From: Strigamia acuminata | Lineage: Eukaryota | Direction: 5' to 3' | Assembly (NCBI GenBank): GCA_949358305.1 | Contig: OX442314.1 | Span: 30,256,001-30,320,000 of the forward strand | Length of the DNA stretch: 64,000 bases | In this document: positions 4,178 to 29,254 of the stretch, piece after piece | How the letters are laid out: each line of letters opens with the position of its first letter | Position numbering within the stretch: the first letter of the stretch is position 1 | Position numbers and translations under genes: made by a program | Notes under the pieces: generated by a model | The model's input: the letters and a program-made list of their open reading frames with translations, nothing else | The model's database searches: none | What the model was told of the DNA's origin: nothing

Positions 4178-5296
4178 GCCTTATACCAGTGTATCAATTT
4201 ATGTTTTCACATAGTTGCTGTGTATTATTGCTGGTTCGTATTTAGCTGGCAAATCTTCGTTTGGTTCTCACATTATATGGTCTTCTTCTGGACAAAAAAT
4301 CACAAATTTCTCTAATAATTTTGTGACAGTTTGATTTGATTTAATATGCTGATCAAATCCCTCTAAGCATTTTTTAATTGATACATTAGAACTTGTGGTT
4401 CTCATAATGTATGTCCTCTGATAGGGTTCTCATAAGCTAGTGGAAACAAGTATGGGTGGGTTTGGTTTAGTTAGCTGTAATGAGTGCTTTTAAAAGCTCC
4501 CTTGGCCGAGTAAAGCTTCATTTTATTTTATTTCAATTTTTTTTTTTTACATGAAAGCTAGTTCTTAAAACTTTATTTTACAGCTATAGTGTACTGTAAT
4601 TGTCTCGGTACTTTATTTTTTGCCATAAACATCGTAGTTAAGTGCGCATTCACAGTTCATCTTCAACTACCGGTACCTGTTGCAGGCCGTTAGGCCCGTT
4701 CTTCATTCCATAAGTTTTTCCTTGTAAAACCCAAACAAACCAACTCAAAAACAAAACCAAAACCAAAAACCACAAACGTTATACAAAAAACGTTCCCCAA
4801 CACCACCTCCAAATTTCCATATGTTTATCTAACTTTTAATTGCTTTCCTATTTATTTTTTTAAAACTGGATGTTTATTGAAAGTGATAAGGGGTATATGT
4901 TCCCAACATGTATTGTAATGTACAACAAACGTTACATACAATGATAACGTATTATGATAGCAGATTTGCGGAGCTGGCAGAATTAATTTGCTCCGCTAAA
5001 TGTAATCATCTTGAACGTTTGAAATTGCTCGTTTTCAAATTATAAAATTTAATTCAGAACATACAAAAACGTGAAAGTGAAAGAAATTTTTACATTTCAT
5101 TTACAATGCAAGAACGTGTTTTAAAATTGAAAATGAACCGAGAAAATAATATAGAATTCTACTTGTCAAGAATTCAAAGTAATAAGTATGTTACTTTAAA
5201 AAGTGAAATGCACAAAAAAAACAAAAAATTGGCGTTTGAATTTAAGAATTATAAACAGAATGAACGAAACGAAAGTTTTTAAATTTCTATTCCTTC

Positions 5297-6079
5297 TTAA
5301 AATGCTTTTTCTCCTGTATGGGTTAAAAAATGTTTTCTTACATCCCCATTTCGATTACTAAAATAATCACACAATTGGCACTTGAATGGTTTTTCTCCTG
5401 TGTGGGTTAATAAATGACTCTTTAAATTTCCTCTTACACTGCAGGAATAATTACACAAATGGCACTTGAATGGTTTTTCTCCTGTATGGGTCAATAGATG
5501 TCTTCTTAAAGTCCTACTTTGAACACTGGAATAATCACACAAATGGCACTTGAATGGTTTATTTCCAGTGTGGGTTAAAAGATGTGTTTTTAAGGTCCCA
5601 TTTTGAGCCGAACAATAATCACACAAATGGCACTTGAATGGTTTTTCTCCTGTGTGGGTTAATAAGTGACTGTTTAAATGCCCACTTTGATTGCAAGAAT
5701 AATCACACAAATGGCACTTGAATGGTCTTTCTCTAGTATGGGTTAATAAATGTGTTTTTAAGGTCCCATTTTGAGTGCAAGAATAATCACACAAATGGCA
5801 CTTGAATGGTTTTTCTCCTGTGTGGGTTAGTAGATGTCTTCTTAAATGCCCACTATGAACCGCACAATAATCACACAAATGGCACTTGAATGATTTTTCT
5901 CCAGTGTGAATTCGCATGTGGACAGTCATGCAAAATTTAAGTCGAAATGAAAGTGAACACATTTGACATTTGAAAGGCTTTTCACCAGTGTGTTTAAGCA
6001 TGTGCTGTTGCAATAAGTACACGTATGAACACGAATAATCACACAGATTACAATTGTAATCCTCACGTGTTCTCTTCAT
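5297..6079 (-). CDS. Tandem C2H2 zinc-finger protein (ZF-A), 9 fingers, 260 aa, no effector domain
   Basis: Nine CxxC-x12-HxxxH units with TGEKPF linkers. The ATG of MKRTRED at 6079 is chosen by comparison with the paralogs. A splice acceptor (TTCATTTCAG) at ~6131 indicates a 5'UTR intron. Confidence 0.9.
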   Translation of the reverse strand: MKRTREDYNCNLCDYSCSYVYLLQQHMLKHTGEKPFKCQMCSLSFRLKFCMTVHMRIHTGEKSFKCHLCDYCAVHSGHLRRHLLTHTGEKPFKCHLCDYSCTQNGTLKTHLLTHTRERPFKCHLCDYSCNQSGHLNSHLLTHTGEKPFKCHLCDYCSAQNGTLKTHLLTHTGNKPFKCHLCDYSSVQSRTLRRHLLTHTGEKPFKCHLCNYSCSVRGNLKSHLLTHTGEKPFKCQLCDYFSNRNGDVRKHFLTHTGEKAF

Positions 6080-7081
6080 TTTGTTTACTTCAACGACAAT
6101 GAAATGAAATGACAATGAAATGAACGTAGTCTGAAATGAAAAAAATAAGAATAAAATAATAATAATTAAGTTCGAAAACGATTAACTTAATTAGACACAC
6201 TTTAAAAAATATTGGTTTGTACAAACTCTGAACAGAAAAAACGCCGTATGGAAAGGTGGGAAGGTCGGGGCATCGCCGCTAATGGTTCGAATTCAGTTCG
6301 GCGAGTTAGGCCTAACGTTCGATGCACGATTGTGCCGAACTTTATAAACCGAGAAAAAAATCTCGTAACACCCAAAAGAATGTGATTTATCTATTCTCCT
6401 ATCTTTACCTTAATCTGCTTACACTTTGGAACCTTTCAAACGTCATAAACATGCATTTAATCGAGGATGTATGAAAAAGTGCGATATAACAAAACACAAT
6501 AAGAAAGATCAAACGAAGGTTGCCGTAGAAACTATAAGTGCATAATAGCGCCGACTAGTGACATTATTAGAACTAAACACAATACAACAAAGACACAAAC
6601 ACTACAAATTGAATGCACATTGCAAATGGTTTAAATTAATTGAAAAAATATAAAACCAAACCTAAAATAAGTCAGTTTTCAATCAATTTTTATTTCATGA
6701 ATCAAATGTCATTTATTTTCACGTTTGTTTATTCGTGAAACGAAATTGAAATTTCTAGTTTTAGAACGAGCAATTATATCGAAGCATTGCAGTGAAGCGA
6801 GGATTATTTTTATTAGCATTGAAATAAAATTTCAAAGCTTAAATTAAAGCTTGTAAAACGAGCAATTTCCAACGTTTAAGCTAAACCATTTAAGCGGATT
6901 AAAAAGAATTACCACGGAAGGAACGGTTGCTAGATAACATTTGCACACTCGTTTTTTTGCCTCCACACATTTTAGATCATAGGCGGGTCCACCAAACAGG
7001 TACCCGACCTAGAGAGACTTCGCTGTATATTCGAATTTCTAATTATTCAACTATCATGTGTGATGACACGTTTATAAGTAC

Positions 7082-8040
7082 TGTGGTGATCTCAAAATAT
7101 TCACCAACTTAGAAGATTAAATTAATTATCTTCTAATTAATTTGACTGTGGCACACGCCAAGTCAGATCATGTGACCGAGGGGAGAAATCCTCTCTAGGC
7201 ACATATCACCCCAGGTTGTCCGGGGTGAAAACGGTTATTAGCCGTTATGGTGCAATATGGTGTAATAACCACTAGTTGCACCCATTTGAGCTAAGTGCGC
7301 AGGTTTTCTGCGCAATATTGAAGCGTGCTGGGCTCGCGTCTTGGCTCAAATCGGGACTCTGAAAAATACAACAACAACCTCAACATCACTGCGATATCTG
7401 CTCCGACAATACGTATTGATAGAGGACCGTTGTAACTCAGTTTCACCTGCTATCTTTGTGCCACCCAAAGCACAAAGCCAGCAATTCTGCTTGAATTAGC
7501 CGTAGCTAATTCCAGCAAACGAGAAGAAGAAGTTTCCCGACGATCGTGAACCATCGCCGTCGCTGCCGCGCGAACGACAGCCACCGCCATCGTACGAGAG
7601 CCGGACGCCTACAGCCGTCAACCACCGCCGCCGAGCCGTCGCACGAGCCGTAGAAGGAGCCCACGAGAACCATCGTCTTCGACCATCGTTCGTGAGTTCA
7701 GCAAACGAAGACAATTCGCCTTCGCCTAACAACTGTGTGTTGTTTAAGCGCCATTTTAGCGCTTTGTAGCTTGCAACAGTCGTTGCAAGCCCTTCCATTG
7801 TTCCCGCTCATTTCATTTCGCGACTTGTCGCCATTGTGATATTTTTAACTAGTCATTGTAATTTAAACGAATAAATACATATTTGTGATTTTTATTAATA
7901 AAACTGTCTTTTTATTTCTTTTCCTTAAACTTAACCCCTAGATAATTTAAGGCCGCCGATTGTAAGTCTTTTATAGCATTCACCTGCGGTTTCTGCTTAA
8001 TTTATTAGAAATTAAGTGGATAAAAACCCGGATCGCAGCA
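7082..8040 (+). repeat. 5' LTR (959 bp)
   Basis: Starts TGTGGTGATC and ends GATCGCAGCA; repeated at 18460-19418; AATAAA signals at ~7870 and ~7897. Confidence 0.97.
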
Positions 8041-8042
8041 CG

Positions 8043-8060
8043 TGGGGGCCTGTCCGGGAT
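8043..8060 (+). promoter_or_regulatory. Primer-binding site, tRNA-Pro-like
   Basis: TGGGGGCCTGTCCGGGAT lies 2 nt after the LTR; it matches the canonical Pro PBS TGGGGGCTCGTCCGGGAT at 16/18 positions. Confidence 0.8.
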
Positions 8061-8154
8061 AGTCATTGTATAAATTTTGATAGTTTAAAATTTACCCGCC
8101 ATTTTTATCTTGCTTATCTTTCTTCTCTATCCTTTCTTTGTCTTCATTTGAAAA

Positions 8155-11100
8155 ATGGCGACTCCAGGCGAAAAGAGACCGAGAGGCAGACCAGCGAAGA
8201 GACGAGTGGCGATCGATCTACCAGCCGTGGATCAAGAAGTGACTGAGTCACAAGAACTGTTTGAAACTATGGATCAAACAGCTAACTGTAACTCGGCACA
8301 GTTAATCGTGAATGAATTCACGCAAGCGTTGGAGCGACAACAGCCATCCCCGCCAAGCGGCCAGTTGGACTTAAATAATCCAACTGGAAGTGGCCGTTCC
8401 AAGTCGCAAAATGATGATTTGAATTTACGAATTCAATCATCAAGTGCAGAGCACTCGCTGAATTCATCACCAGTCCAAGGTGCAGCACAGCAAGATTTAG
8501 AGAACTCCAACATGGAAGTTTCTCATTCTCCAGTGCGTGTTACCATGATGGACGCACTCCGTGAGCAAGCTAGGCTCGAGGGAGTAAAAGTCACTAGCGA
8601 AATGACTGTGGAACAAATCCACAAAGCTATGGTTCGCAAACAAAGTCAAAAAGACGTTGAAATCGTCAGAACAAGCTTGCAAGCAGAGTTCGAGCGAATG
8701 CGTGCAGAAATGCATCAGCAAAATGCCGAACTAAAACAACAACGTGCGAATGACCATGTTAAGTTGTTACAATTAGAGCAGGAAAAAGCTTCCTGGCTAA
8801 TTACTGACGAAGAGCAACAACAAAGGCTCGAGCAACTAAATCAAGCCCAAAAAGATTTAGAAATTGCTAATGAAAATTTGAGATTGGCCAACGCAAATTT
8901 GCGAGAAGCCAACACAAATTTAATGACTGCCGAACTAACCGCCCCAGTTCGAGCGAGGGAAGTAATTCCCTCCACTTCTCGAAATTACGAGAATCATGCT
9001 GCAGAGCAAGCAGCAAGAGCTAAGAGATTAGCACAACGAGAAAACGAAGTATTTCTCGCTCGACAGCAGTCTGTAATTGATGCTGGTCAAGCCGCCAAAA
9101 GTCAAAGTACTGCAGAGCAGTTATTACGTGCCGACTTAGCTGCGCAAGCTCGTGAAAACGAAATTCTTCGCGCAGACCTGTTGACGGTACAAGAGAACTT
9201 TGCAGTAGTCGTACAAAAAGTACAAGACGTTTGCGGCGAAGATAATTTTGCAAAGCCAGCCCCAGTTTTGCAAAAAGGTGCTTCCAAATCACCTGAGTTG
9301 ATTGATTTAACATCAGCTAAACCAAAAGTCAGTCGACAATCAAGTTGGACTGACAGCGATGACTCACGCAGTAGTCGTGGAAGCCGTAATAGTCATCACA
9401 GTCGCAAAAAGAGAAAGCGACAACCAGACCCGACCGAATATCATTCCCCAAAAGTTCCGCAAAATTCGGATAGATTCTTTAGCAATAGTGACCAATTAAT
9501 TGGATTGCTGGCGAAAAAGAATAAAGAACGTGAGAAACCACACGATCGTGGACGGTCACACGATAATCCGCGAGAAGGCTCACCAAAACGAGATTGTCAC
9601 AACGACATCCGTGATGGGCCGAGATACCGTGGAAATCCGCCAGGTGGTGACCCACCAGGTGGAGACAGTTCAGATGGACATGGAGGTGGCCACTCACGTG
9701 ACCACAATTCGAATGGCAATCAAAATGGAAGGGGACCACCAAATGGAGACCGTCGTCCGCCAGATGGCGACGATCCTCCGGACCCTGATCCGCCGCCAAA
9801 TCCGAATCATGAATCTGCGTCAGATACAGATTCCTCACGTCCCAGTGTGAGAGGGCGATCTCGTCACAGAACACGTAGTAGAACTCAAAGACCCGATTTT
9901 TACACGAAAGATGAGATTGACCAGTTGTTGAGGCAAAATGCTCAACAACAGCGAAAAAGCAGAAGGGATAAAATTATTTTGCAAAAAATAAGTGAATTTA
10001 CTTCTGATAAATGGACTCATCAAACAACAGATGAAAAGTTCATTAGATGGGATCGAGTTATCCCACATGCCTATAATGGAAATTGGCAAGCAGGGTCAAA
10101 CCTCTTGCTGGAAATATTCGAACTAGGCAAAGTTCACAGTTTTAGCTGTGAAGGTGCATTGGCCCATCTAGTACCAAGAATACTAGTTGGCGGTGTCAAG
10201 GAGTGGTTTCGCAGGAAAGACTTCACGAAGTGGGATGACTTCGTTAAACAATTTATGTTTAAATTTGGTGAATCGAGCGAAGACATCAAGACGCTCTGGA
10301 GATGTCTTAAGCAACGAAAAGGCGAAAGCTTACATTCGTACATGCTAAGAGCAGAGAATCTGCTTGGCAGAATGCCACATGCTGTTACTGATGCAACAGC
10401 AGATGATCAGTTTAGAGCTGGCCTCACAGAATATAGTAAAAATATTCTGATGATGTCGGACGCTCCCGACCCGGGGAAATTCTCCGAGTTAAACGAGTTC
10501 ATGGAAGTCAATCAATTGCGCATTGACGAAAAGTACAAAGCTTATCTTACAGAAGCCGAAAGGTCAGCGTACTTAAAGCGAGAGAAAAGACTCGCTGAGC
10601 AAAACAATGAAACCTTTAATGGTTTGAAATTGTTGCAGCCACCTAGTTACGAAGACTTTCTAGACGAAGTGGATGAGAAGAGTTCGAAAAAAGAATCTTC
10701 CAAAAAGGACGTCAAAAATCCTCATTCAGTCCCTAAGTTACACGCAAATATAACTGGAGCTGAAACTCCGTCGTCTGAAGCTGAAGAAGCTGAAGAGGAG
10801 GAGGAAACAGGAGACGAGACGATGGCTTTATTGGCCAAAGCAGCGGCGTTGTTAGCAAAAAATAACCCCGTTGCGGGCAAATGGAAGCCAAGGATGAAAC
10901 CAAAAAATGTTTCATTTGACGCATCAAAGGTGAATACCGAAAGGAATTCAAAGTCACCTGCGGTGTCGCCAGAGCGCCGGTCTGACGCTCGTTCTCGTTC
11001 TGCCTCGCCAGCAGCAACGAAAAAGAAATCGCCTGCCACTGATCCATGCAATTTATGCAAAAAATTAGGGCATTGGCAAAAAGACTGCCCTTCCTCTAAA

Positions 11101-11178
11101 AAGGACAAACCAGTGTCAACAGCTGAGTTTGAAAAAGCAGTCAAGATCATAACTGACATGTTTCGAAAAAACTTGTAG
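8155..11178 (+). CDS. gag: Gag polyprotein, unusually long (1007 aa)
   Basis: First ORF after the PBS. It has a long coiled-coil-like region, a capsid-type segment (WFRRKDFTKWDDFVKQFMFKF...LKQRKGESLHSY) and a CCHC knuckle CNLCKKLGHWQKDC. Confidence 0.93.
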   Translation: MATPGEKRPRGRPAKRRVAIDLPAVDQEVTESQELFETMDQTANCNSAQLIVNEFTQALERQQPSPPSGQLDLNNPTGSGRSKSQNDDLNLRIQSSSAEHSLNSSPVQGAAQQDLENSNMEVSHSPVRVTMMDALREQARLEGVKVTSEMTVEQIHKAMVRKQSQKDVEIVRTSLQAEFERMRAEMHQQNAELKQQRANDHVKLLQLEQEKASWLITDEEQQQRLEQLNQAQKDLEIANENLRLANANLREANTNLMTAELTAPVRAREVIPSTSRNYENHAAEQAARAKRLAQRENEVFLARQQSVIDAGQAAKSQSTAEQLLRADLAAQARENEILRADLLTVQENFAVVVQKVQDVCGEDNFAKPAPVLQKGASKSPELIDLTSAKPKVSRQSSWTDSDDSRSSRGSRNSHHSRKKRKRQPDPTEYHSPKVPQNSDRFFSNSDQLIGLLAKKNKEREKPHDRGRSHDNPREGSPKRDCHNDIRDGPRYRGNPPGGDPPGGDSSDGHGGGHSRDHNSNGNQNGRGPPNGDRRPPDGDDPPDPDPPPNPNHESASDTDSSRPSVRGRSRHRTRSRTQRPDFYTKDEIDQLLRQNAQQQRKSRRDKIILQKISEFTSDKWTHQTTDEKFIRWDRVIPHAYNGNWQAGSNLLLEIFELGKVHSFSCEGALAHLVPRILVGGVKEWFRRKDFTKWDDFVKQFMFKFGESSEDIKTLWRCLKQRKGESLHSYMLRAENLLGRMPHAVTDATADDQFRAGLTEYSKNILMMSDAPDPGKFSELNEFMEVNQLRIDEKYKAYLTEAERSAYLKREKRLAEQNNETFNGLKLLQPPSYEDFLDEVDEKSSKKESSKKDVKNPHSVPKLHANITGAETPSSEAEEAEEEEETGDETMALLAKAAALLAKNNPVAGKWKPRMKPKNVSFDASKVNTERNSKSPAVSPERRSDARSRSASPAATKKKSPATDPCNLCKKLGHWQKDCPSSKKDKPVSTAEFEKAVKIITDMFRKNL

Positions 11179-11212
11179 ACGCAGATCCATCAGGTCTAGT
11201 GGACGCTGCGTC
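11166..11212 (+). promoter_or_regulatory. Putative -1 programmed ribosomal frameshift signal
   Basis: Slippery heptamer A AAA AAC (11166-11172) in the gag frame. The pol frame is -1 and open from this point. A GACGCAG...CTGCGTC stem starts ~5 nt downstream. Confidence 0.8.
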
Positions 11213-14200
11213 ACCTCCGAAATCGGAATCAGAGAATGAAAATCTGAAGATAATGGAAGATGTTGGAGAAGTTATTGATGAATTAATTCGTCAAACAGAA
11301 CTAAAAGAAAAAGGATCTCTTGATGTAAAAAAGGAGATTGTCGGCGAAACCCCGACTGAAGAAGACACTTCCAATATTCAAGATAAAGTCGAAGTTAAAG
11401 ACGATAGACCAAGCTCAGTTCCAGAGACACCTGGAATTGAGGAGTGCATTAAGTTATTTGCAGCTACAACTCTTGATACCAATGAGTTATTAGATGAATT
11501 GCCTTTGGAGCCTCCAATTACAGTTCCTCATAAATTGCGCAAGTTTGAGTGCAAAGTGGCTGGAATACCAAACAGCCAAGACCTTCCGACGTTAAAGTTA
11601 GAAACGTTAAAAGGTGTAATAACCGGAATGTTGGACTCAGGAGCAAATAAAAGCTTCCTAGCCACTTCAGTTATTAATCAATTAGGTCTAGAAAAATATC
11701 TACGACCTATCGGACCTGGTGTCAGAGTTACGACGGCAAGTGAAGAAGTCACTCCAGATGGAACCATCCATCTTTCATTTCGATGGACACATGGCACGTT
11801 ACGTCATCCGTTCATCGTAATACCAAATAAGTATCCAATGGTACTATTGGGTTGCGATTTTATGAATAAATTAAAAATCCAACCTAATCCACAGACGATG
11901 TCTTGGAATTTCACGCAACCTATGGATGCAGATTTACCCTACATTCCACAAGCGTTGCTGGATCGTTATTTGGAGAAAATAGAGGAACCCGATTCCTCAT
12001 TTATGACCTTTGCAAAAGCTTACGCTGCAAGTGTAACTCAAGGCAAAATTGATGAAGAGAATTTCATCCAAAAGTTAGTCGAAGAAGCTAACTTAAATTT
12101 GGAGCAATCCAAATTATTAGAAAAGATGTTATCCAAACATAAAAGGATTATTTCTAAAGATCCAGGTAAAACACACCTGGTTAAGCACAAAATTGAGCTT
12201 GACACGGAGAAACCCATCCGTGTCCCCTTTAAGAGCATAAAACCTCAAAAAAGGGAAATAATCAGACAACTTTGTCAAGACATGATTGACAAAGGCGTAG
12301 TCGTCAAAGCTGAAGGCGATTACGGAATGAGGCCAGTCCTAGTCATGCGACCAGGAAACGACCCACGCTTGTGCATTGATTTTCGCCCCATCAATACACA
12401 TACTAAGTACAACCCACCTCAAATGCCAACAATTGAGGAAATTCTGCGAGAAATCGGAGAATTCGAGTGGGTCAGTACTATAGATCTGACCAAGGGATAT
12501 TGGCAGATAGAATTGCGCCCTGAAGACAGAGAAAAAACTGCCTTCTGGAGCCCAATGGGAAGACTAATGTTTTTAGTCATGCCTTTCGGATTAGTAAACG
12601 CACCAACTACCTTCCAAGAATTAATGGAAAAAGTTTTGGGTGACGTTTACAGAAAATTTGCATGGGCATATTTGGATGACATAATTGTTGTATCCAAATC
12701 GTTCGAAGAACACATTAAACATTTAGATATAGTGTTTAAAAAATTGGCAGAAGCTAATTTACATGCGCACCCTGGCAAGACGCATCTCTGTAGAAAGGAA
12801 TTAATTTTCCTAGGCTACAAAGTAGGAGTAGAAGGACTTGCAGTAGACCCTAAAAAAGTCGCTGCAATTACGCAATTTCCTGCTCCTACCAATCTTAAGG
12901 AATTACAAAGATTTCTAGGCATGGTGAATTTCTTTCACCGCCTAATCAAGAATTTGGCCACAGTGGCAGAACCACTAAGGCCACTCTTGAAGAAAGATGC
13001 GGAGTTCGATTGGGAACTGCATCATCAAGCAGCATTCGACGCAATAAAAGACCTGCTTACGAATGCTGAAACAATGAAGATGCCTGACTTGTACATGCCA
13101 TTTATTGTTCATACTGACGCCAGTAAACAAGGGTTGGGTGCAGCCCTTACACAAAAGAAAATTGTGGATGGCCAAGAAGTCGAAATGCCATGCGTGTATG
13201 CAAGCAGAAGCTTGCAACCCGCTGAAAAGAATTATACTGTGACAGAATTAGAATGTCTCGCAGTAGTATGGGGATTACGCAAATTTCGCCCATACTTAGA
13301 GTACACTACATTCACTGTACAAACGGATCACCAAGCACTTAAGTGGTTGATGTCGTTATCTGACCCGTCGGGCAGATTAGCTCGTTGGCAAATGGAGCTA
13401 ATGGCGTATTCGTTCGAAATACAATACGTCAAAGGTCCGCTGAATGTAATAGCAGACGCATTGTCACGTGCACCTGTCAGCGCACCTGACGAACCAGAAG
13501 ACGATGGCGATAATGATGATTTATTATCATATTGTCCATCTCCTTGCCGAAGTTGGCAAATGGGAAAATTGAACGAATTACCCAAGTCAATAATAGTTAA
13601 TGACGACGATCAAGCATTAATTAATTTTTGTAATAACATGCATGATCCGTCAGGAACCCCTGACGTCGAATTAAGAGCTATGATGGCTAAAAAATTCGAG
13701 CTGCCAACAACAAATGTTTTAATTAAAGCATTTGCAGCTAAAATTGCGAAGCAATTAGAATGTGATCCTCCAACGAGAGATGACATTATTGCAGCGCAAA
13801 AAGCAGACGAATTTTGCCAACATATTCGCAATTACTTGCTAAACAAGCAATATCCAAGTTACATAGTAACTCGTCTTCAAAGAAGAAACTTTGAAAGACA
13901 CGCGAGTACTTATCTCATTGAAGAAGATATGCTACTCCATTATCATCCTACCTCCACCGATGAATTGGGAGAGGATGGTAGGGCACTTAAAGTTGTTGTG
14001 CCAAGAAAATTGATTTATAAAATCATTTGGTTGATGCACGGACATCCACTGTCCGGCCACCCAGGCATTGCGAGGACAATGTACCGAACTCGAAGAGTTT
14101 ATACCTGGAAAGGTATGAAACGTGATATTACACGTTTTATTCAACATTGTCAAGGATGTCAGGCATGTAAGCCGAGATCAAAGACCGAAATTGAAGACGC

Positions 14201-15425
14201 TCAAATTGGACCATTTGGACCATTTGACTGCCTCAGTGTGGATTTGTCTGGTCCCAAACCAAGAACCAGAAAAAACAATACCCACATTTGCGTCATCGTA
14301 GATGTCGCTACACATTGGCCCGAATTATTTCCAATGTGTAATCCAACGGCAATAAAAGTTGCCAACACAATTTATCACTTATCAATGACTTTCGGATTTC
14401 CGAGACAAATCATAAGTGATAATGGACCACAATTTCGATCACAGGTCTATAAAGAATTTTGCAAAAAATTCGACATGTCGCGAACACCGACATCGATTTA
14501 TCATCCACAAAGCAATCCTGTGGAGAGAACCAATCGAGATATTAAATATTTAGTTTCGATTTATTTAGATATTCATGACCAATGGGATGAGTATCTACGC
14601 GAATTTGCATTCAGTTTGAGAACAACTGTAACAAGAGGCAGAGATTATTCTCCTGCTTTCTTAAATTTTTTCCGAGAATTAAGAATTCCTTGGGATCCAA
14701 GAATTCCGGAAGGAATTTTAGTCATTGATCCAAAAAATCCGCATTTATATGTTCAGAAATTAGAAACAATAATTGCAGAGACGTATCAGCATATGATGTC
14801 TCACGTCTTAGATTTGAGACGCCGTGTCGAAGCTGAAAAATCAGATAAGAAATTCGACAACTTCAGACAAAATGATTTAGTCTGGCGAGAGTCTCATATT
14901 CTCTCAAATGCCGCTAAAGGAATAGCAGCAGGCATTTCACCGAAAAGGAATGGGCCTTATGTAATTATCAAAAGGTTACAAGGAGGCGCCTTTCAACTTC
15001 GACGGCTGAGTGATAATAAAATTTATCCAGCTGTTCACGGCACTGAATTAATGCCGTACTTTCCCGTTTTCAACCAAGAAATTTGGCTGGAAGGGGAGGA
15101 AGTGGGTCAAAAAACAAAGAATATTGTTAATACCTTGGATGATGCTAAATTATCCAAAATTCCTGTCGAAAACACGGAATCGAGTAAAAAATCGAAACTC
15201 AAAAATAACGAAGTCGATGAAATAAACCAGCGACTTGAAAATGTTTCTCTTGATGAAAATCTAGAAAAGGAAATGTTTTTAGAAAAAGAGAAAATTTCAA
15301 ACAATGAAGTATATAACTCATCTGACATTGGAGACGATGCTGATGACAATCTAAACAAGTTGGATTGTACTTCGCGAAAGTCAAAGTACAACTTGAGATC
15401 TCGCGTTCCGCGAGCCAAGACATAG
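11166..15425 (+). CDS. pol: Pol polyprotein (protease, RT, RNase H, integrase), probably expressed as a Gag-Pol frameshift fusion
   Basis: Motifs: LDSGA protease; LCIDFR, MPFGLVNAP and YLDD of RT; TDAS...ELECLAV...TDH of RNase H; HHCC (HGHPLSGH...CQGC); DDE (VDLSG, SDNG, VERTN); GPY. The frame is uninterrupted and the track start is a GTG. Confidence 0.97.
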   Translation, partial: KKLVDADPSGLVDAASPPKSESENENLKIMEDVGEVIDELIRQTELKEKGSLDVKKEIVGETPTEEDTSNIQDKVEVKDDRPSSVPETPGIEECIKLFAATTLDTNELLDELPLEPPITVPHKLRKFECKVAGIPNSQDLPTLKLETLKGVITGMLDSGANKSFLATSVINQLGLEKYLRPIGPGVRVTTASEEVTPDGTIHLSFRWTHGTLRHPFIVIPNKYPMVLLGCDFMNKLKIQPNPQTMSWNFTQPMDADLPYIPQALLDRYLEKIEEPDSSFMTFAKAYAASVTQGKIDEENFIQKLVEEANLNLEQSKLLEKMLSKHKRIISKDPGKTHLVKHKIELDTEKPIRVPFKSIKPQKREIIRQLCQDMIDKGVVVKAEGDYGMRPVLVMRPGNDPRLCIDFRPINTHTKYNPPQMPTIEEILREIGEFEWVSTIDLTKGYWQIELRPEDREKTAFWSPMGRLMFLVMPFGLVNAPTTFQELMEKVLGDVYRKFAWAYLDDIIVVSKSFEEHIKHLDIVFKKLAEANLHAHPGKTHLCRKELIFLGYKVGVEGLAVDPKKVAAITQFPAPTNLKELQRFLGMVNFFHRLIKNLATVAEPLRPLLKKDAEFDWELHHQAAFDAIKDLLTNAETMKMPDLYMPFIVHTDASKQGLGAALTQKKIVDGQEVEMPCVYASRSLQPAEKNYTVTELECLAVVWGLRKFRPYLEYTTFTVQTDHQALKWLMSLSDPSGRLARWQMELMAYSFEIQYVKGPLNVIADALSRAPVSAPDEPEDDGDNDDLLSYCPSPCRSWQMGKLNELPKSIIVNDDDQALINFCNNMHDPSGTPDVELRAMMAKKFELPTTNVLIKAFAAKIAKQLECDPPTRDDIIAAQKADEFCQHIRNYLLNKQYPSYIVTRLQRRNFERHASTYLIEEDMLLHYHPTSTDELGEDGRALKVVVPRKLIYKIIWLMHGHPLSGHPGIARTMYRTRRVYTWKGMKRDITRFIQHCQGCQACKPRSKTEIEDAQIGPFGPFDCLSVDLSGPKPRTRKNNTHICVIVDVATHWPELFPMCNPTAIKVANTIYHLSMTFGFPRQIISDNGPQFRSQVYKEFCKKFDMSRTPTSIYHPQSNPVERTNRDIKYLVSIYLDIHDQWDEYLREFAFSLRTTVTRGRDYSPAFLNFFRELRIPWDPRIPEGILVIDPKNPHLYVQKLETIIAETYQHMMSHVLDLRRRVEAEKSDKKFDNFRQNDLVWRESHILSNAAKGIAAGISPKRNGPYVIIKRLQGGAFQLRRLSDNKIYPAVHGTELMPYFPVFNQEIWLEGEEVGQKTKNIVNTLDDAKLSKIPVENTESSKKSKLKNNEVDEINQRLENVSLDENLEKEMFLEKEKISNNEVYNSSDIGDDADDNLNKLDCTSRKSKYNLRSRVPRAKT

Positions 15426-15469
15426 TGTTGTCTTTCACCTTTTGGGTTTACCCAAAAGATCCGAGAAAG

Positions 15470-15663
15470 CAATCTCGTGACGTCATTCGTAGTACCCACT
15501 CGAATGACAACGTTAATCATACGTTATAATTAGTGACGTCACAAAGCGTCTCTAATCCAAGTTCGTGTTTGCAATCAACGAACTTAGTCACTTTTTCAAA
15601 AGTTTCGAGAGTGTATGCATCGCATCGCCTACGTTACGACCCGAATAGTTCGACAACCTGATC
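15470..15663 (+). promoter_or_regulatory. Putative internal promoter and non-coding first exon for ORF3
   Basis: Two TGACGTCA palindromes (15478-15485, 15534-15541), an Inr-like TTAGT at 15584 and a perfect donor GTAAGT at 15664. Confidence 0.5.
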
Positions 15664-15767
15664 GTAAGTAATTTTTCTGTATGAAAAATTTGATAAAACA
15701 TAAGATTTATGTATTATTTCTCTTTCAAGACGAAAGAATTTCCGAAATTACCGGAAAACGAAAGAGA

Positions 15768-18407
15768 ATGGACGAGGAAGCGATCCAACTCCAGGCGGAC
15801 GGAGAAATGCCCATGGAAGGGGCAAATGAAGACGTTCAATTGACGCTTCAACAACGGGTAAATTATTAGAATAAATTTTTACCAAGTGTTTAAGTCAGAA
15901 AAATTGAGTAATTTCACTTTTCCTGACTTCAAACACAAGCCGCTAAAAAATAAAAATGGCGGCTATAAAAGTCACGTGCTTCAAGCATGTGCGAAGGGAG
16001 TTGCCATGACAACCAACATCCCTTAGTGACTCACAGCCACAAGCGCTAAGCTTAAAAAATATTTCAAATAAGAAATTATTTGTTTATTTTTAAATAAACT
16101 AATTTATTTATTTTTCTTCGAATATAGATCGAGAGGGATCGAGAAACACCATTCGCGCTTCCCGATCACGTGCCGACTCAGCACCCGCTGATTTTTCGAG
16201 CGGCATTGCCCGAAAAAATCAGAAGACTGAAGACGGCAAACAATACCTGGTGGAAGTTGCGCCACGACTTCAGCAGATCAGCGCTGCAAGGATTTGGTGC
16301 AAAAGGAAGATTCATCGAGCGCCTTCACGTGGACGGTGTCGATGAAATCGAGTGGACGCTCGACGAGAGCCCCCCAGGACCGCTTGCAGCAGAGTTGCTG
16401 CACAACCAGTGGCCAGTGACGCCACGAGAGCGTCACGAGCGCAGAAGAGCGCTAAAGAGTACCGGAATTAATTACGGTGCTCTAACCCAATTGAGGAAGA
16501 ACCTCAAGACGACACAACGCGAAGTCGTTAAACGGTATCGCAAATCCGTTCGTGACGGGAACCCACAACTTCCCGTCACACAAACCGAGCTCCACCAGTT
16601 GGCGCTCGCCGGGTGTTTTAACGATTTTCCGGGATTTTTCCCGTCCAAAGCACTCCGAGCTGCCGCGGTGCAGCTTCGCGTCGACGAAAATCGACAACTG
16701 GCTCGAGAACACGAGGCAGAGGAGCAAGCGCGTTGCGCTCTCCCTTTTTATCAAGAAGATGGAATTCCGGCCCCAGCGGCCATCAATCCTCCGCCGCAAG
16801 ACGAGGATTTGAGGGTGGGGCAACTCCCTCCGCCGGTTCCAGTCCGACCGATGTTCCGCGAATCAAGCCGCGATCGAGAGGAACGTCAGAAGCGATCACG
16901 CCCATATTCGACTGACGCGCAGCCATCACGCCCGCAGTCGCGACGAGGACGGACACCAGAGTCGTTTGGCTCGTCGTCTTCGCTGAGTTTTGAATCGGAC
17001 TCCACAATTAAGTCCGCCCGAAGTAGCCGAACCGCCTCCACGTTCAAAGTGGACAACTCGGCTACTCCATACGCCATGAGACGTGTTGTCGGTGATATTT
17101 CTCCCGACTGTAGCGTGCCAGTACCTGGACATGCTAGCCGCTTGCCCGAACAAGGATATGTTTCCCGCTTGCCGGCTGGAGTTAGCAACCTGCAACTCCG
17201 GCCATTTTTTAGTGAGTCATTCGGCCCACAATGGACCTGCTACGAGCAGCAACCCATTAGAGCACAGCAGGAAGTGCTCCAGAAGCTGGACGCATACCAA
17301 AGCGCCCAGATCGCCGAGTCGCAGAAGGACTGGCAGAGACTAGCTGAAAGGCTAGAAGTCTCCGACATCAATACCATTGATGATCCCCGTCTGATGGATT
17401 TTCAGCGTCAGCTAATTCCGGGGATGACTAGGGTGTTGTACCCTGGTGTTCTTCCTTCGCCAGGACAGGCGTTAGCGGCCATTACGTACCTTTGGACCGC
17501 GCCGATGGGCCTGTCGGAGAAGAAAGTCGAGCTGTGGTACCACCTCAGGCTCGACCCGCCTACGATCTTAGCCGAGCTAATAAAGCAAGTCGTAGCAAAC
17601 GGTGAGACCGAAGAAGAGGCCGCCGTTCGGTTGCGAACCGAGTGGTCCTTTGCGAAGGCCACGGCGCGAATGACCGGAAGACCACCGCTTCCAGTTACAA
17701 GCGCCACAGCAGCTGCGTCACTGGCTGTTTTCCAGTCGGCCCAAGAGGGCGCTGGATGTTCATTTTGGCCAGAGAACGCCGGAAGTTCTCAAACTCCAGC
17801 CGGAGTTCAACGGGTAGTCGAAACCCGTCAGCTCCCCGGTGTGGGTCGAGCACCGGGACGAGGCGTCACACCCTCGTCAACCTCCGCACCCGCGTTGGTT
17901 TTCTTGGGCCCGCAGTGCCATTTTGACGATGCCACGACGGAAGACTCACGTCCGCCGCCGCCGCCAGCCAAGCCGGAGACGAAGGTCAAGCCGCTGAAAA
18001 AAGAGTCGGCTTTCAAGACCCTGATGCGCCTGTATCCGCACTTCTATTTGACGCCGGATACGCGAACACTGCTTAGCAACAACCACAAGTTGTCGAGGCA
18101 GGTGTTTATGTGGCTCGAGGACCACATCCGGGTGTTAAGCCCACCATCAGTGCTCCACGATCGACTCCTGAGAGCACGATTGGCGCCAGAGGATCCCATA
18201 GAGTTTGCGGCGCTAGGATTTTTCAACCGAGCGAACTCGGCGAGAATCATCCAGGTTTGGCTTCATGTCAACCCTGGAATGGTCTCCGGACCAAACGCAG
18301 GTCGCGACCTGTGTACGGTTAACGAGCGGTCCAACCCGAGGGACGACACCACGGATATGATGCGCCCGTTGACGCCTGAGCGAACTCAGACCATGGACGA
18401 ATCATAA
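15768..18407 (+). CDS. Spliced third gene of the retrotransposon (ORF3), ~789 aa, unknown function, not env-like; coding exons 15768-15857 and 16128-18407
   Basis: The ATG at 15768 reads MDEEAIQ...LQQR to a donor GTAAAT at 15858. A branch-like CTAAT (~16099), pyrimidine tract and acceptor TAG at 16127 join in phase 0 to the 745-aa ORF, which itself lacks an early ATG. No signal peptide or transmembrane segment is visible. Confidence 0.8.
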
Positions 18408-18446
18408 ATTGGTTCGTTCATTTTCTCTCCATGTAAGATTCGTCTT

Positions 18447-18459
18447 AAATGGGGGGATG
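18447..18459 (+). promoter_or_regulatory. Polypurine tract
   Basis: AAATGGGGGGATG immediately before the 3' LTR. Confidence 0.8.
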
Positions 18460-19418
18460 TGTGGTGATCTCAAAATATTCACCAACTTAGAAGATTAAAT
18501 TAATTATCTTCTAATTAATTTGACTGTGGCACACGCCAAGTCAGATCATGTGACCGAGGGGAGAAATCCTCTCTAGGCACATATCACCCCAGGTTGTCCG
18601 GGGTGAAAACGGTTATTAGCCGTTATGGTGCAATATGGTGTAATAACCACTAGTTGCACCCATTTGAGCTAAGTGCGCAGGTTTTCTGCGCAATATTGAA
18701 GCGTGCTGGGCTCGCGTCTTGGCTCAAATCGGGACTCTGAAAAATACAACAACAACCTCAACATCACTGCGATATCTGCTCCGACAATACGTATTGATAG
18801 AGGACCGTTGTAACTCAGTTTCACCTGCTATCTTTGTGCCACCCAAAGCACAAAGCCAGCAATTCTGCTTGAATTAGCCGTAGCTAATTCCAGCAAACGA
18901 GAAGAAGAAGTTTCCCGACGATCGTGAACCATCGCCGTCGCTGCCGCGCGAACGACAGCCACCGCCATCGTACGAGAGCCGGACGCCTACAGCCGTCAAC
19001 CACCGCCGCCGAGCCGTCGCACGAGCCGTAGAAGGAGCCCACGAGAACCATCGTCTTCGACCATCGTTCGTGAGTTCAGCAAACGAAGACAATTCGCCTT
19101 CGCCTAACAACTGTGTGTTGTTTAAGCGCCATTTTAGCGCTTTGTAGCTTGCAACAGTCGTTGCAAGCCCTTCCATTGTTCCCGCTCATTTCATTTCGCG
19201 ACTTGTCGCCATTGTGATATTTTTAACTAGTCATTGTAATTTAAACGAATAAATACATATTTGTGATTTTTATTAATAAAACTGTCTTTTTATTTCTTTT
19301 CCTTAAACTTAACCCCTAGATAATTTAAGGCCGCCGATTGTAAGTCTTTTATAGCATTCACCTGCGGTTTCTGCTTAATTTATTAGAAATTAAGTGGATA
19401 AAAACCCGGATCGCAGCA
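18460..19418 (+). repeat. 3' LTR (959 bp)
   Basis: Same length and, by eye, same sequence as 7082-8040; the track shows an identical 100-aa antisense ORF in both LTRs. Confidence 0.97.
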
Positions 19419-22700: not shown

Positions 22701-23703
22701 CCTCCCCGACTCAACCGACATTACTCCTTTTACTCCTTATTCAATTTAATCATTTTTGCAAATTACGAAAAGATTTTTTACTGTACCGGGTATTCGTCAC
22801 GTTATCGGTTAAATTATTAAATATGCCGGTACGTTATGCAAAGTGCAAAAGCGGGACGTTGCGCCCAGTACAGCGGGTGTACTACACATGAAGATTACTG
22901 TTGAATTTTCGGTCCAAAAAAAATTTCCGGTGGAAGAAAAAAATTATCAGATTGAAAAATGAATTTTTGGTCCGAAAAATGAATTTTCTAAAATTTCAAG
23001 GTAAACTTTAAAATTCATATAATAGTCATGACTTTTATATTCAAATTTGTCATTTATCATTATCAAAATTCAAAACTTCCTCTCACTGAGTTGCAGCGTC
23101 CTTCTGGTGGGAACAATCAACAGCAGCTGTCAAGTGTTTCTTCCTCATTTTGTTTTCAGCCGTTGTTTCTTCTCCCAAACAAGCATTTTTGTTCCCTTGT
23201 TTTTCACAATTTTCAGTCGTTATTCCATTGTGTTTACGTGGGTGTTTTGAAAGGTGTGGTCGGGAGAAGTCGACGATCTAAAAGATTTATAAGCTGATCT
23301 GGCCTGAAGTAGCCCAACTCTTTCCACTGGATGTTGTGTTCGTCACTACTGTCACAAAAGTTACCCACAAAGTGATTTGTACAAATTAAACTTTTTGTGT
23401 TTTTCCCAAACATTAAAATTAATATTTGCAAATATATAAATTTGGAAACTGCTCGTTTTCAAGTTATAAAATTTAATTCAGAACGTACAAAAACGTGAAA
23501 GTGAAAGAAATTTTTACATTTCAGTTACAATGCAAGAACGTGTTTTAAAATTGAAAATGAACTGAGGAAAAAATATACAATTCTACTTGTCAAGAAATCA
23601 AAGTAATAAGTGAAATGCACAAACAAAACAAAAAATTAGCGTTTGAATTTAAGAATTATACATAGAATGAACAAAGCGAACGTTTTTAAATTTCTATTCC
23701 TGC

Positions 23704-24486
23704 TTAAAATGCTTTTTTTCCTGTATGGGTTAAAAGATGTCTTCTTACATCCCCATTTCGATGACTAGAATAATCACACAATTGGCACTTGAATGGTTTT
23801 TCTCCTGTGTGGGTTAATAGATGTACTTTTAAATGCCCACTACGAGTCGAACAATAATCACACAAATGGCACTTGAATGGTCTTTCTCCAGTATGGGTTA
23901 ATAAATGTCTTCTTAAATGCCCACTATGAACCGCACAATAATCACACAAATGGCACTTGAATGGTTTTTCTCCTGTGTGGGTTAATAAATGACTCTTTAA
24001 ACTCCCTCTTACACTGCAGGAATAATCACACAAATGGCACTTGAATGGTCTTTCTCCAGTATGGGTTAATAAGTGACTGTTTAAATTCCCATTTTGAGTG
24101 CAAGAATAATCACACAAATGGCACTTGAATGGTTTTTCTCCTGTGTGGGTTAATAGGTGACTCTTTAAACTCCCTCTTACACTGCAGGAATAATCACATA
24201 AATGGCACTTGTATGGTTTTTCTCCTGAATGGGTTAATAGATGTATTTTTAAATGTTCACTACGACTCGAACAATAAGCACACAAATGGCACTTGAATGG
24301 TTTTTCTCCAGTGTGAATTTGCATGTGGACAGTCATGCAAGTTTTAAGTCGAAATGAAAGTGAACACGTTTGACATTTGAAAGGCTTTTCACCAGTGTGT
24401 TTAAGCATGTGCTGTTGCAATAAGTACACGTATGTACACGAATAATCACACAGATTGCATTTGTAATCCTCACGTGTTCTCTTCAT
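23704..24486 (-). CDS. Tandem C2H2 zinc-finger protein (ZF-B), 9 fingers, 260 aa
   Basis: Nine C2H2 units; paralog of ZF-A with shared flanks (block ~23440-26087 vs ~5020-6915). Confidence 0.9.
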
Positions 24487-24738
24487 TTTTTTTTACTTCA
24501 ACGACAATGACACTGAAATGACACTGAAATGAACGTAGTCTGAAATGAAAAGAATAAGAATTAAATAATAATAAATTAAGCTTGAAAAGCGGAAAACAGC
24601 AGATTAACGACTAGTGATTGCCATCAGATGTTTACTTTCTCATTTTTAAAACCTTAATTTCATTGTTAGCTGTCAGTCATTCTCTCCCCAGCATTGTTAT
24701 GCACGTGCGCTCTTTTTGTCAGCCATCTTTATTTTTCC

Positions 24739-25474: not shown

Positions 25475-26603
25475 ATCGGGCATCACCGAATTCGGTTAGG
25501 CGAGTTAGGCCTAACGTTCGACGCACGCGCCGAATTTTATAAACAGAAAAAATAATCCAATAATACCAAAAAAAAAATGTGATTTATCTATTCTCCTATT
25601 TTAACCTTAATGTGCTTACACTTTGGAACCTTTCAGACGTAAAAAACATGAACATCGATGATGAACGAAAAAGTGCGATACGATAATGCAAACGAGGTTG
25701 CCATAGAAACTATAAGTGCATAATAGCGCCGACTAGTGACATTATTAGAACTAAACACAATACAACAAAGACACACACACTAAAAATCGAATGCAAATGG
25801 TTTAATTTAATTGAAAAAATATAAAACCAAACCTAAAAAAAAGTCAGTTTTCAAACAATATTTATTTCATGAATCAAATGTCATTTATTTTCACGTTTGT
25901 TTATTCGTGAACACGAAATTGAAATTTCTAGTTTTAGAACAAGCAATTATTTCGAAGCATTGCAGTGAAGCAAGGATTATTTTTATTAACTTTGAAATAA
26001 AGTTTAAAAGATTAACATAAAGCTTGTAAAACGAGCAATTTCCAACGTTTAAGCTAAACCATTTGAGCGGATTAAAAAGGATTACCACTTGACAACAGGT
26101 CGTGTCGTCCGAAATCACTAATTCTTGTGATTTCGTCTAGGCAACTTGGTGGAGCGTTACAACATCCATGCCCAGCGTGACGATTGGATTCTAGCGACTA
26201 GCGTTATTATGTACCAGTTTCTATGGCAACCGCCATTTGCGTCATCATATTGTATATTGGTGTACCGGTATCGCACTTTTCCGTTCATCCTCGATTAAAT
26301 GCATGTTTATTACGTTTGAAAGGTTCCAAAGTGTCAGCAGATTAAGGTAAAGATAGGAGATTAGATAAATCACATTTGTTTGGGTATTATGGGATTTTTT
26401 TCCGGTTTATAAAGTTCGGCGCAATCGTGCATCGAACATTAGGCCTAACTCGCCGAACTGAATTCGAACCGTTGGCGGCGGTGTCCCGACCTTCCCACAC
26501 AGCGTTTTATCTGTTCAGAATATACACATACCAATATATTTAAAGTGCGTCCAATTAAGTTTTATTTTATTCTTATTTTTTTCATTTCAGACAAACAAAC
26601 AAA

Positions 26604-27539
26604 ATGAAGAGAACACGTGAGGATTACGAATGCAATCTGTGTGATTATTCGTGTTCAAACGTGTACTTATTGCAACAGCACATGCTTAAACACACTGGTG
26701 AAAAGCCTTTCAAATGCCAAATGTGTTCACTTTCATTTCGACTTAAAACTTGCATGACTGTCCACATGCGAATTCACACTGGAGAAAAACCTTTCAAGTG
26801 CCATTTGTGCGATTATTCTTGCAAGCAAATTGGACATTTAAACAGTCACCTATTAACCCACACAGGAGAAAAACCATTCAAGTGCCATTTGTGTGATTAT
26901 TCTTGCACTCAAAATGGGACTTTAAAAACACATTTATTAACTCATACTGGAGAAAGACCATTCAAGTGCCATTTGTGTGACTATTGTTCGACTCGTAGTG
27001 GGCATTTAAAAGACCATCTATTAACCCACACAGGAGAAAAACCATTCAAGTGCCATTTGTGTGATTATTCTTCGGCTCGTAGTGGGCATTTAAAAGACCA
27101 CCTATTGACCCACACAAGAGAAAAACCATTCAAGTGCCATTTGTGTGATTATTCCTGCAGCGTAAGAGGGAATTTAAAAAGTCATTTATTAACCCATACA
27201 GGAGAAAAACCATTCAAGTGCCATTTGTGTGATTATTCTTCGGCTCGTAGTGGGCATTTAAAAGACCACCTATTGACCCACACAAGAGAAAAACCATTCA
27301 AGTGCCATTTGTGTGATTATTCCTGCAGCGTAAGAGAGAATTTAAAAAGTCATTTATTAACCCATACAGGAGAAAAACCATTCAAGTGCCATTTGTGTGA
27401 TTATTCTTGCAATCAAAATGGGAATTTAAAAGCCCATCTATTAACCCATACAGGAGAAAAACCGTTCAAGTGTCATTTGTGTGGTTTTTCTTGCAATCAC
27501 AGTGGGAATTTAAGAAAACATCTTTTAACCCATACATGA
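26604..27539 (+). CDS. Tandem C2H2 zinc-finger protein (ZF-C), 11 fingers, 311 aa
   Basis: Eleven C2H2 units; inverted paralog; acceptor TTCATTTCAG at 26590 just before the ATG. Confidence 0.9.
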   Translation: MKRTREDYECNLCDYSCSNVYLLQQHMLKHTGEKPFKCQMCSLSFRLKTCMTVHMRIHTGEKPFKCHLCDYSCKQIGHLNSHLLTHTGEKPFKCHLCDYSCTQNGTLKTHLLTHTGERPFKCHLCDYCSTRSGHLKDHLLTHTGEKPFKCHLCDYSSARSGHLKDHLLTHTREKPFKCHLCDYSCSVRGNLKSHLLTHTGEKPFKCHLCDYSSARSGHLKDHLLTHTREKPFKCHLCDYSCSVRENLKSHLLTHTGEKPFKCHLCDYSCNQNGNLKAHLLTHTGEKPFKCHLCGFSCNHSGNLRKHLLTHT

Positions 27540-29254
27540 GAAAAAGCATTTTAAGCAGGAATAGAAATTTAAAAACGTTCGTTTCATACGTTCTGTATAT
27601 GTATATAATTCTTAAATTCAAACGCTAATTTATTGTTTTGTTTGTGCATTTCACTTTTTAAGTAGAATTGTATATTTTTTCTTCGGTTCATTTTCAAATT
27701 TAAAACACGTTCTTGCTGATTTTGGTTTTGTTAGTGTATTTAACTTTTTAAATATATATTTATTACTTTGAATTCTTGACAAGTTGAACTGTGTATTTTC
27801 TTCTGTTCATTTCCAATTTTAAAACACTTTTACCTGTATGCACTTCGCGTTCTTGCATTGTAAATTAAATATAAAAATTTCTTCCACGTATGTATTTTAT
27901 GCATATTTATGTATTTTTTTCTATTTCTGATTTAAGTTTTTAAAGTTGAAAAACAATAACTTTCCATAGTTCAATAAAAATTCTAAGCATTCAAACGATT
28001 ACATTTTGCTGCACTGTAGGTGCTCACAACCACGACAACCATTTATAGTGTGTGTAGTGCCATCTGGTGAGCAACCTTCAAAATACACGTACAATTTATT
28101 TATAATATAATATAATTGTAATCGCTTAAGAAGACTTAAGTTTCCAAAAAAAAAATAGAGCAAGTGTTTACATGCCATAAAAACAATTCACTTGAAGCAA
28201 ATAAATGACACTGAGCACGCGCAACGTATTTGTTTAACGAAGCGTATTTTCTGTGTTTACACGCCAAAAGAATATATATACATATTCATCTGGGGATTAA
28301 CCAGATCATTTTAGTCATTTAATAGCTCTATTTGTTTCGTTTTGTAAGCTATTTCACCTTAATGTCAAAAAAGACAACCTAAATTGTCTCTTGTAGCTCT
28401 TGGTTGGCTTCCCCACATAGCTTTGCTATTTTTATTTGTTCCACAAAGAAAAATATTTAAATAATAAATAAATACATTGATTTAACATGTGTTTATCATT
28501 TTTTTGTGAATTTAAATGACTGACAGCTGGTTGACGTAAGTTGTCATGTCGATACAATAAACTTTAGAATTTTTTTTTTGAAAATAAACACCGTAATAAT
28601 AAAAAATAATAAAAACAATATTTATATTTTAACAGACCCTGCAATTGCCCTCAAAACCATTGGCTAGGTGATGAACTTGCAAGGTCATTTCCCGAAAATC
28701 GAAAGAGAAAAATAATTAAAATGTTCCACCACATCAGCACACAAAACACTGATTACCACAAAAGAATTAATTAGCGAAGGGGCAACAAAAAACATACTTT
28801 CTTATCGGAAAAAGAAAAGAAAAGGAAATGTAAACACCACAAATTTTATCAGTTTTCTTTTATATATAAAAAAAACACACACAAAAGGCTTCGAAAATGA
28901 ATAAAAAGTGTTAGTTCCGGTCTTACTGAGTGGATTTCTTTTATTTATTTTTTTATTTCGTCAAAAGACGTTGGTATTTCTTGTATTGGTAGTACTTCCG
29001 GTGACATTGTATCATTTGTCGTCTGGTTCTGATATCAAGTTCTCCAGGATGAGAAGGTCACTTGTGCCACACCTGAGGGAAAGATCGAATTAGGACGACC
29101 CAGGTGATGGTTTTCGAACAGGAACTTCAAACACATTCAAGTTAATTGCATTTTCCTGTTGACATAACAATCACACATGTACAATTTATCAAAACAAAAA
29201 AATCAAACACGAAAATAAAATCGCAAATAACAAAAATTAGACTTCCAATGTAAA

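Follow-up and report, generated by a model that had tools for sequence, protein, structure and literature searches.

A predicted three-exon accessory gene, probably with its own internal start, downstream of pol in a Ty3/gypsy retrotransposon of Strigamia acuminata

In a 64,000-nucleotide stretch of the Strigamia acuminata genome (the window), the segment that follows pol in an LTR retrotransposon (15426–15767) reads, with a probability that we put at roughly 0.55 on sequence grounds, as the 5′ part of a gene in its own right, ORF3, which has three predicted exons and would be transcribed from an internal start near 15586. We regard this start as the likeliest because no good splice acceptor lies before the first predicted exon. 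A first-pass annotation of the same DNA had already assigned ORF3 a transcription unit of its own; the coding status of the first intron, a second intron at 15858–16127 and a train of predicted hairpins go beyond what it described.

The stretch 7082–19418 is an intact Ty3/gypsy (Metaviridae) LTR retrotransposon, which we call young because its gag and pol frames are open. Its two LTRs (7082–8040 and 18460–19418, both on the + strand) are identical over 959 bp, have TG...CA ends, and are flanked on both sides by a GTAC target duplication. The 5′ LTR carries an Inr-like TCAGTT motif at 7437 and AATAAA motifs at 7870 and 7897; the corresponding AATAAA motifs of the 3′ LTR, at 19248 and 19275, are likely to provide the 3′ end of both the genomic and the ORF3 RNA. 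Directly 3′ of the 5′ LTR lies a primer binding site (8043–8060, +), which we take to resemble tRNA-Pro, and a polypurine tract (18451–18459, +) stands directly before the 3′ LTR. The tRNA-Pro primer and the GTAC target presumably recall Woot/Osvaldo elements, and we claim no clade name, a literature search having returned nothing relevant. The gag frame (8155–11178, +) encodes a CCHC zinc knuckle (PF00098, E 9e-4, just under the cut-off), and the pol frame (11157–15425, +) overlaps its end by 22 nt in a different frame. The pol domains, assigned with Pfam, follow the order PR–RT–RNase H–IN, as they do in 119 of the 120 relatives listed, among which the top RT–RNase H identity is 46%; no close locus was found in the pol search. 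Two public runs from one study contain the element at high depth and with many variants, as expected for a many-copy family. The kind of these runs is unrecorded, and they behave as DNA, since a 486-nt contig crosses the first ORF3 intron unspliced.

The main part of ORF3 is exon 3 (16128–18407, +), an open frame of 759 codons whose own first Met is codon 242, so that an upstream exon is required to supply a start. The stretch described in the first-pass annotation ends just before ATG 15768, but the frame from there closes after 33 codons and needs a second intron to continue; unspliced, ATG 15615 fares no better and stops after 18 codons. When two introns are removed, a predicted coding exon 1 of 49 nt (15615–15663, +, counted from ATG 15615), an exon 2 of 128 nt (15730–15857, +), which holds ATG 15768 as a second in-frame ATG, and exon 3 join in phase into an open frame of 818 codons, making the first intron a predicted coding intron. 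ATG 15615 lies 29 nt downstream of the A of an Inr-like site; a stop at 15585 closes its frame upstream, and the frame is open from 15588. Its start context is weak and that of ATG 15768 is better. The fit of exon 1 was reproduced in 2416 of 13675 shuffles, and the 36 nt before ATG 15768 were open in 8010 of 20000, giving a joint rate of about 0.07; the frame fit of ATG 15615 is modest support for a coding exon 1.

For comparison with the host, we traced 19 introns in the window (out of 20 candidates, one being dropped for want of a clear frame) and built the splice-site scoring matrix from these alone. Three of the host genes, used for their introns only and recognised by eye, are presumably a NACHT-type gene (1–2240, −), a Gly/Ser/Tyr-rich secreted protein (33510–37087, +) and the ribonucleotide reductase small subunit (42000–45330, −). 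Host introns span 60–2048 nt, with 8 of the 19 no longer than 102 nt and one of exactly 66 nt; in leave-one-out scoring, their donors range from 0.9 to 9.1 and their acceptors from −6.3 to 14.0. The first intron of ORF3 (GTAAGT...TTTCAAG, 15664–15729, +, phase 1, GC 0.20) is likewise 66 nt long, which bears out the host-like size given in the first-pass annotation. Of the 809 AG sites of the element, its acceptor has the best score. The donor has the full GTAAGT and scores 2.7, and owes its rank of 129 of 546 to its exon side. GC content falls from 0.45 to 0.20 at the donor (best change point 15665), and the GC change at the 3′ end of the intron is not clear-cut (best points 15751, 15742 and 15720). 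With GT..AG ends, a pyrimidine tract, host-like size and composition, and the frame kept, it has the features of a U2-type intron and is a well-supported prediction.

Intron 2 (15858–16127, +, 270 nt, phase 0) is predicted from a donor ranking 17 of 546 and an acceptor ranking 47 of 809, the latter scoring only 2.4, with a branch-like CTAAT at 16099, 25 nt upstream of the acceptor. Three of the four splice sites coincide, to within 1 nt, with GC change points (15665, 15859 and 16127). A coding middle exon within intron 2 was considered and rejected by eye, as no donor there opens an in-frame path from exon 2. Neither intron is matched by a joint among the 15 of 20 joints listed or in a second contig listing, and, as such contigs reveal presence and not absence, intron-less copies may still exist.

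What lies upstream of exon 1 bears most directly on where the RNA would begin. Within 15426–15663, no acceptor scores above −0.9 with the host-intron matrix, and the closest fair one further upstream, 15264, is inside pol; an exon that ends at 15663 with no good acceptor before it more likely begins at a start site. Together with the supported intron and the in-frame ATG 15615, this is the part of the independent-unit proposal that stands. The first-pass annotation went further and set aside an env-style splice from the 5′ leader, for which the element nevertheless offers a complete route, albeit one we consider unlikely. Transcription would start at the LTR Inr (about 7439), donor 7962 (or 7692) would be joined to acceptor 15729, intron 2 would be removed as well, and reading would begin at ATG 15768; the CRE palindromes described below would then be a by-product of hairpins and the 66-nt intron the mere end of a long one. 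The only GTAAGT sequences of the element are at 7962 and 15664, the leader is ATG-free between 7258 and 8154, just before the gag start, and the 7962-to-15729 joined RNA has ATG 15768, with its better context, as its first ATG behind the strongest acceptor. Leader-spliced env is usual in insects according to the cited section of PMC12992720, and splicing of this type is assumed for rotifer ORF3s in that of PMC5408684. However, this route leaves unexplained the GC step at 15664, the host-typical length of 66 nt and the in-frame exon 1. An LTR splice and an internal start may also both be used. Donor 7962 is placed 65–92 nt downstream of the AATAAA signals of the LTR, a position from which it could prevent premature polyadenylation in the 5′ LTR, as donors do in HIV and foamy virus.

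We give little credence to an exon 1 that is internal to an LTR-started RNA and entered through a weak acceptor, either 15264 in the pol tail or 15602 or 15609, with Gag– or Pol–ORF3 fusions as possible products and the upstream hairpins serving as an RNA element only. In its favour, acceptor 15264 is the 18th best of 809, both pol (14113) and gag (10930) contain strong donors, and the frame is open from 15588. Yet acceptors 15602 and 15609 score only −2.6 and −0.9, and an exon beginning at 15265 crosses the in-frame stop at 15585, so no fusion would result.

The candidate promoter elements between pol and ORF3 carry less weight than the first-pass annotation gave them. Two perfect CRE palindromes TGACGTCA, at 15478–15485 and 15534–15541, are indeed present 56 bp apart. 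The pair arose in none of 2000 shuffles of 15426–15767 and in 9 of 500 whole-element shuffles, and some 8-mer palindrome or other occurs twice in 33 of 2000 shuffles and, among 187 tiles of 342 nt taken from the real sequence, in 24; the pair is unusual, not unique. Across the window there are 6 CREs against 0.82 expected, and the longer RTGACGTCAY, which we take to be the full CRE 10-mer motif, occurs four times, two of these being the CREs of the element. Two of the four host CREs sit 92 and about 165 nt upstream of a host start, which makes CRE use in promoters plausible for this host. Host CREs at 47511 and 51033 lie upstream of a prenylcysteine oxidase gene and of a second, presumably cortactin-binding-protein-like, gene, respectively, with two more at 55253 and 61902.

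The Inr-like TTAGTC (15584–15589, +), from which we predict a start near 15586, lies where the earlier annotation had placed its TTAGT, at 15584. As a motif it falls at chance level (0.9 TTAGT per kb, three in 15426–16127), and we found neither a DPE match nor a TATA near −30 to accompany it. A bacterial promoter scan gave chance-level results and is not relevant here. The inverted repeat at 15439–15458, noted earlier as a hairpin, is present, belongs to a class with 16 members in the window and recurred in 14 of 1000 region shuffles; folded as RNA, it forms an 8 bp stem with a 4-nt loop. Its core GGGTTTACCC (15444–15453) fits what we take to be a Dorsal/Rel-type κB pattern, as one of seven such matches in the window and the sole one in the element, and could act as a DNA site instead of a hairpin.

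That inverted repeat belongs to a set of six predicted hairpins (15439–58, 15463–76, 15482–508, 15509–25, 15529–56 and 15559–85) that, with a closing helix (15477–81/15587–91), make up a predicted block 1 at 15439–15591 (+). Its folding z-scores are −6.5 and −6.2, no shuffle of 200 was as stable, and it is the lowest of 189 windows across the element. A second block of five predicted hairpins (15938–16053, +; z −4.4, 0 of 200 shuffles) lies inside intron 2 and overlaps motifs that we take to resemble TATA, E-box, AP-1 and YY1 sites. The element from 7082 to 18459 is rich in stable folds, with 14 of 189 windows at z ≤ −4.9 (25 shuffles each), spread over LTR, gag, pol and ORF3. The antisense strand folds as stably as the sense strand (−54.5 kcal/mol for sense, −56.7 for antisense), and the structure could therefore function in RNA or in single-stranded DNA. 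Rfam gave four sub-threshold minus-strand matches, which we take as chance.

Variation between copies falls mostly outside the predicted stems. Among the listed variable places, 10 of 12 in block 1 and 3 of 3 in block 2 are unpaired, 13 of 15 in all; these 15 substitution places come from 21 listed rows, of which the other 6 are outside the blocks or are repeats, and they form a thresholded subset, with single-contig differences in the two divergent contigs falling under the 1% threshold. Two paired places of 15, against paired backgrounds of 0.65 and 0.58, were reached in 4 of 100000 site permutations, in 821 of 100000 when neighbouring places were treated as 8 clusters, and in 702 of 100000 for the 4 high-depth clusters. 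In the rest of the element, for 40 listed places of 143, 20 of the 40 are paired against 0.62 (1642 of 20000). Among the listed variants, one insertion hits the first hairpin at a stem, the last hairpin has two small gaps, and no compensatory pairs were seen in the block stems. As the variable places avoid pairing, stems appear to be kept while loops change, although hairpin-templated repair could also spare stems.

These stems bear on the promoter reading. The Inr-like site and both CREs are mostly within them, palindrome 1 lying in stems, palindrome 2 with 5 of its 8 positions paired in the predicted fold and the Inr-like site paired in part, so the motifs may partly reflect RNA structure. 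Lying in conserved predicted stems, they are weaker as promoter evidence, and in this respect the independent-unit proposal has lost ground. RNA structure alone could, in the folding model, keep both CREs and the Inr-like site; a stem has no need for the same 8-mer twice, which argues against a structure-only reading of the CREs. Furthermore, related-copy contigs match through the last base of the second CRE (15541), two loop positions included, and are then unlike.

Two divergent contigs, which differ at 15 and 27 letters, match the window until 15595, just past the Inr-like site. Related-copy contigs turn unlike after 15541 and 15622, and before 15924. This sequence pattern hints that sister copies share an upstream block and differ in the first exons that follow it. 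Summed X1 contig depth is about 5,960 over 15643–15858 against about 11,600 at 15496, a weak hint, depth not being copy number, that about half of the copies have a different exon 1–2 segment.

A further reading, which we think improbable, puts the main start within intron 2. The GC island with a TATA-like motif at 15964 would be a promoter or first exon, for example from ATG 15956 through donor 15989 to 16128 in frame, and exons 1 and 2 would be minor or copy-specific. TATAWAW occurs at just four places in the element, of which 15964 is one; the context of ATG 15956 equals that of the gag start, and this ATG is in phase 0 with donor 15989, which scores 3.8; and X1 contigs of 82 and 78 nt span 15899–16028 with no other letters. 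Against it, a TATA at 15964 puts the RNA start near 15994, past both ATG 15956 and ATG 15987, ATG 16006 is out of phase, and the GC island is accounted for by hairpins with variable loops.

Exon 3 has no Pfam family and no relative among 1.84 billion protein representatives, in a word search of 7997 candidates restricted to near lengths, in the Atlas (searched with the whole exon and with residues 370–545) or in metagenome and viral contig collections; by these sequence searches, ORF3 is an orphan. Over 19 residues, hydropathy peaks at 1.01 in exon 3 and at −0.46 in the exon 2 peptide, with one N-glycosylation motif, and, having no membrane span, ORF3 is not an Env. A single-sequence model (pLDDT 40) contains three helical regions joined by long disordered linkers; a second single-sequence fold is also of low confidence (pLDDT 62), and a fold search with the ORF3 models found nothing at E 0.001. 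Clusters of basic residues can be made out by eye and suggest that the protein is nuclear. Six silent and four replacing differences are listed for exon 3 (0.29 expected silent), compared with 9 and 8 for gag and 9 and 2 for pol, and this silent-leaning pattern gives weak support for selection on ORF3. That ORF3 is a recently captured piece of a host gene, its introns and promoter motifs unused passengers, is highly improbable even though the introns and CREs are of host type: the frame is intact over 818 codons, the listed differences lean silent, no host relative appears among the 1.84 billion proteins, and RNA-mediated capture would be expected to lose introns.

Internal promoters for the extra genes of LTR elements are already known from Tor4b, foamy virus and Grande, as far as the cited parts of the sources go. 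The first-pass annotation likened this locus to foamy viruses, whose internal promoter, situated within the 3′ end of env, drives Tas and Bet and is activated by Tas within the Retroviridae (PMC13220597, in the passages cited). As an analogy this holds: a second promoter, here a predicted one, an accessory non-structural product and a spliced RNA are common to both. Unlike in foamy virus, however, the site here is intergenic after pol in an element without env, and exon 3 shows no Tas or Bet likeness in Pfam, the word search or the 1.84 billion representatives. On our comparison with the cited part of its description, Penv of Oikopleura Tor4b is the nearer precedent. There, env of Tor3b and Tor4b is made from an internal start mapped by RACE, that of Tor4b in the space after pol (PMC4402516), and the authors argue that an internal start frees the genomic RNA from splicing. 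The third gene of a gypsy-type element and a start position after pol, predicted in our case, fit this pattern. In contrast, Tor env is a membrane glycoprotein made from an RNA without splicing in the passages cited, whereas ORF3 has two predicted coding introns and no membrane span. With no env, no Tas/Bet likeness and splicing required, the locus belongs neither to the foamy type nor to the Tor type.

Other systems share single traits. In the cited sections of PMC11963269, maize Grande and Retand carry extra genes between pol and the 3′ LTR, antisense, with a TRP28 domain and a nuclear product, and the Grande accessory gene is reported to have its own promoter (by a title cited in PMC11963269). 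The position of the extra gene in a Ty3/gypsy element is alike; Grande and Retand, however, are plant elements with an antisense TRP28 gene, whereas the present gene is animal, sense, orphan and predicted to bear introns. Drosophila errantivirus env is spliced and gains its start by the splice (PMC12992720), and bdelloid LTR elements have ORF3s after pol, non-Env ones included (PMC5408684); in the parts of both papers cited, it is the leader or gag that supplies the upstream exon, in contrast to the coding exon with a host-sized intron after pol predicted here. The MusD transport element is a multi-stem RNA element that serves unspliced RNA (PMC5767303, cited passage); our blocks, whose role is predicted, are like it in kind only and have no Rfam match. 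What is new is the combination of two predicted coding introns with conserved hairpin blocks outside the predicted mRNA. In mostly open-access literature and at the level of main texts, we found no LTR element whose ORF3 is in sense orientation, not an Env and interrupted by two coding introns.

An element copied through RNA should lose its introns, and this young, many-copy element has kept two predicted, host-type coding introns, which implies that splicing is silenced on the genomic RNA and active on another. On the internal-start reading, the DNA upstream of 15586 would serve both as a CRE-driven promoter and, in the full-length RNA, as a folded signal. Host CREB/ATF factors would start a short capped RNA near 15586; the host spliceosome would remove the first intron, 78 nt from the cap, and the second; ORF3 would be translated from ATG 15615 or ATG 15768; and the RNA would end in the 3′ LTR. 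The product would be a regulatory protein, soluble and probably nuclear. On the genomic RNA, the donor of the first intron would lie 8 kb from the cap and be left unspliced, and the introns would thereby survive reverse transcription. Closeness to the cap favours splicing through first-exon definition, which would account for the splicing of the short RNA alone. With block 1 upstream of the start and block 2 in intron 2, both would be present only in the genomic RNA, where they may act in export, packaging or splice suppression.

A bolder reading, which we hold to be doubtful, is an independently evolved complex-retrovirus layout, in which a CRE-responsive promoter feeds a multiply spliced mRNA for the orphan regulator, the hairpin blocks are its targets, cap-dependent splicing keeps the introns, and copies swap first exons. 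If that layout were true, the orphan regulator would be a transactivator, an export factor or an anti-silencing protein. Even the internal-start reading, if correct, would enlarge the small set of LTR-element genes that have a promoter of their own by a sense-strand, non-Env accessory gene with introns, and the locus gives exact places at which to study how splicing is switched. LTR elements are methylated in this lineage (PMC6673714, cited part), and the CREs, which contain CpG, could tie ORF3 expression to methylation loss.

Elsewhere in the window, the prenylcysteine oxidase gene is 70% identical to that of the centipede Strigamia maritima, the next match being at 48%. A repeat that contains an 84-nt tandem array is present three times, once inverted (5197–6181, 23604–24492 and 26559–27600); the copies are 80–90% alike and probably represent a non-autonomous mobile element. 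An intron-free BTB-domain gene of 501 codons (39219–40724), with GC content above that of its flanks, is possibly a retrocopy. Finally, two adjacent long perfect palindromes with arms of 20 and 15 nt (31889–31961) lie between inverted 21-nt arrays.
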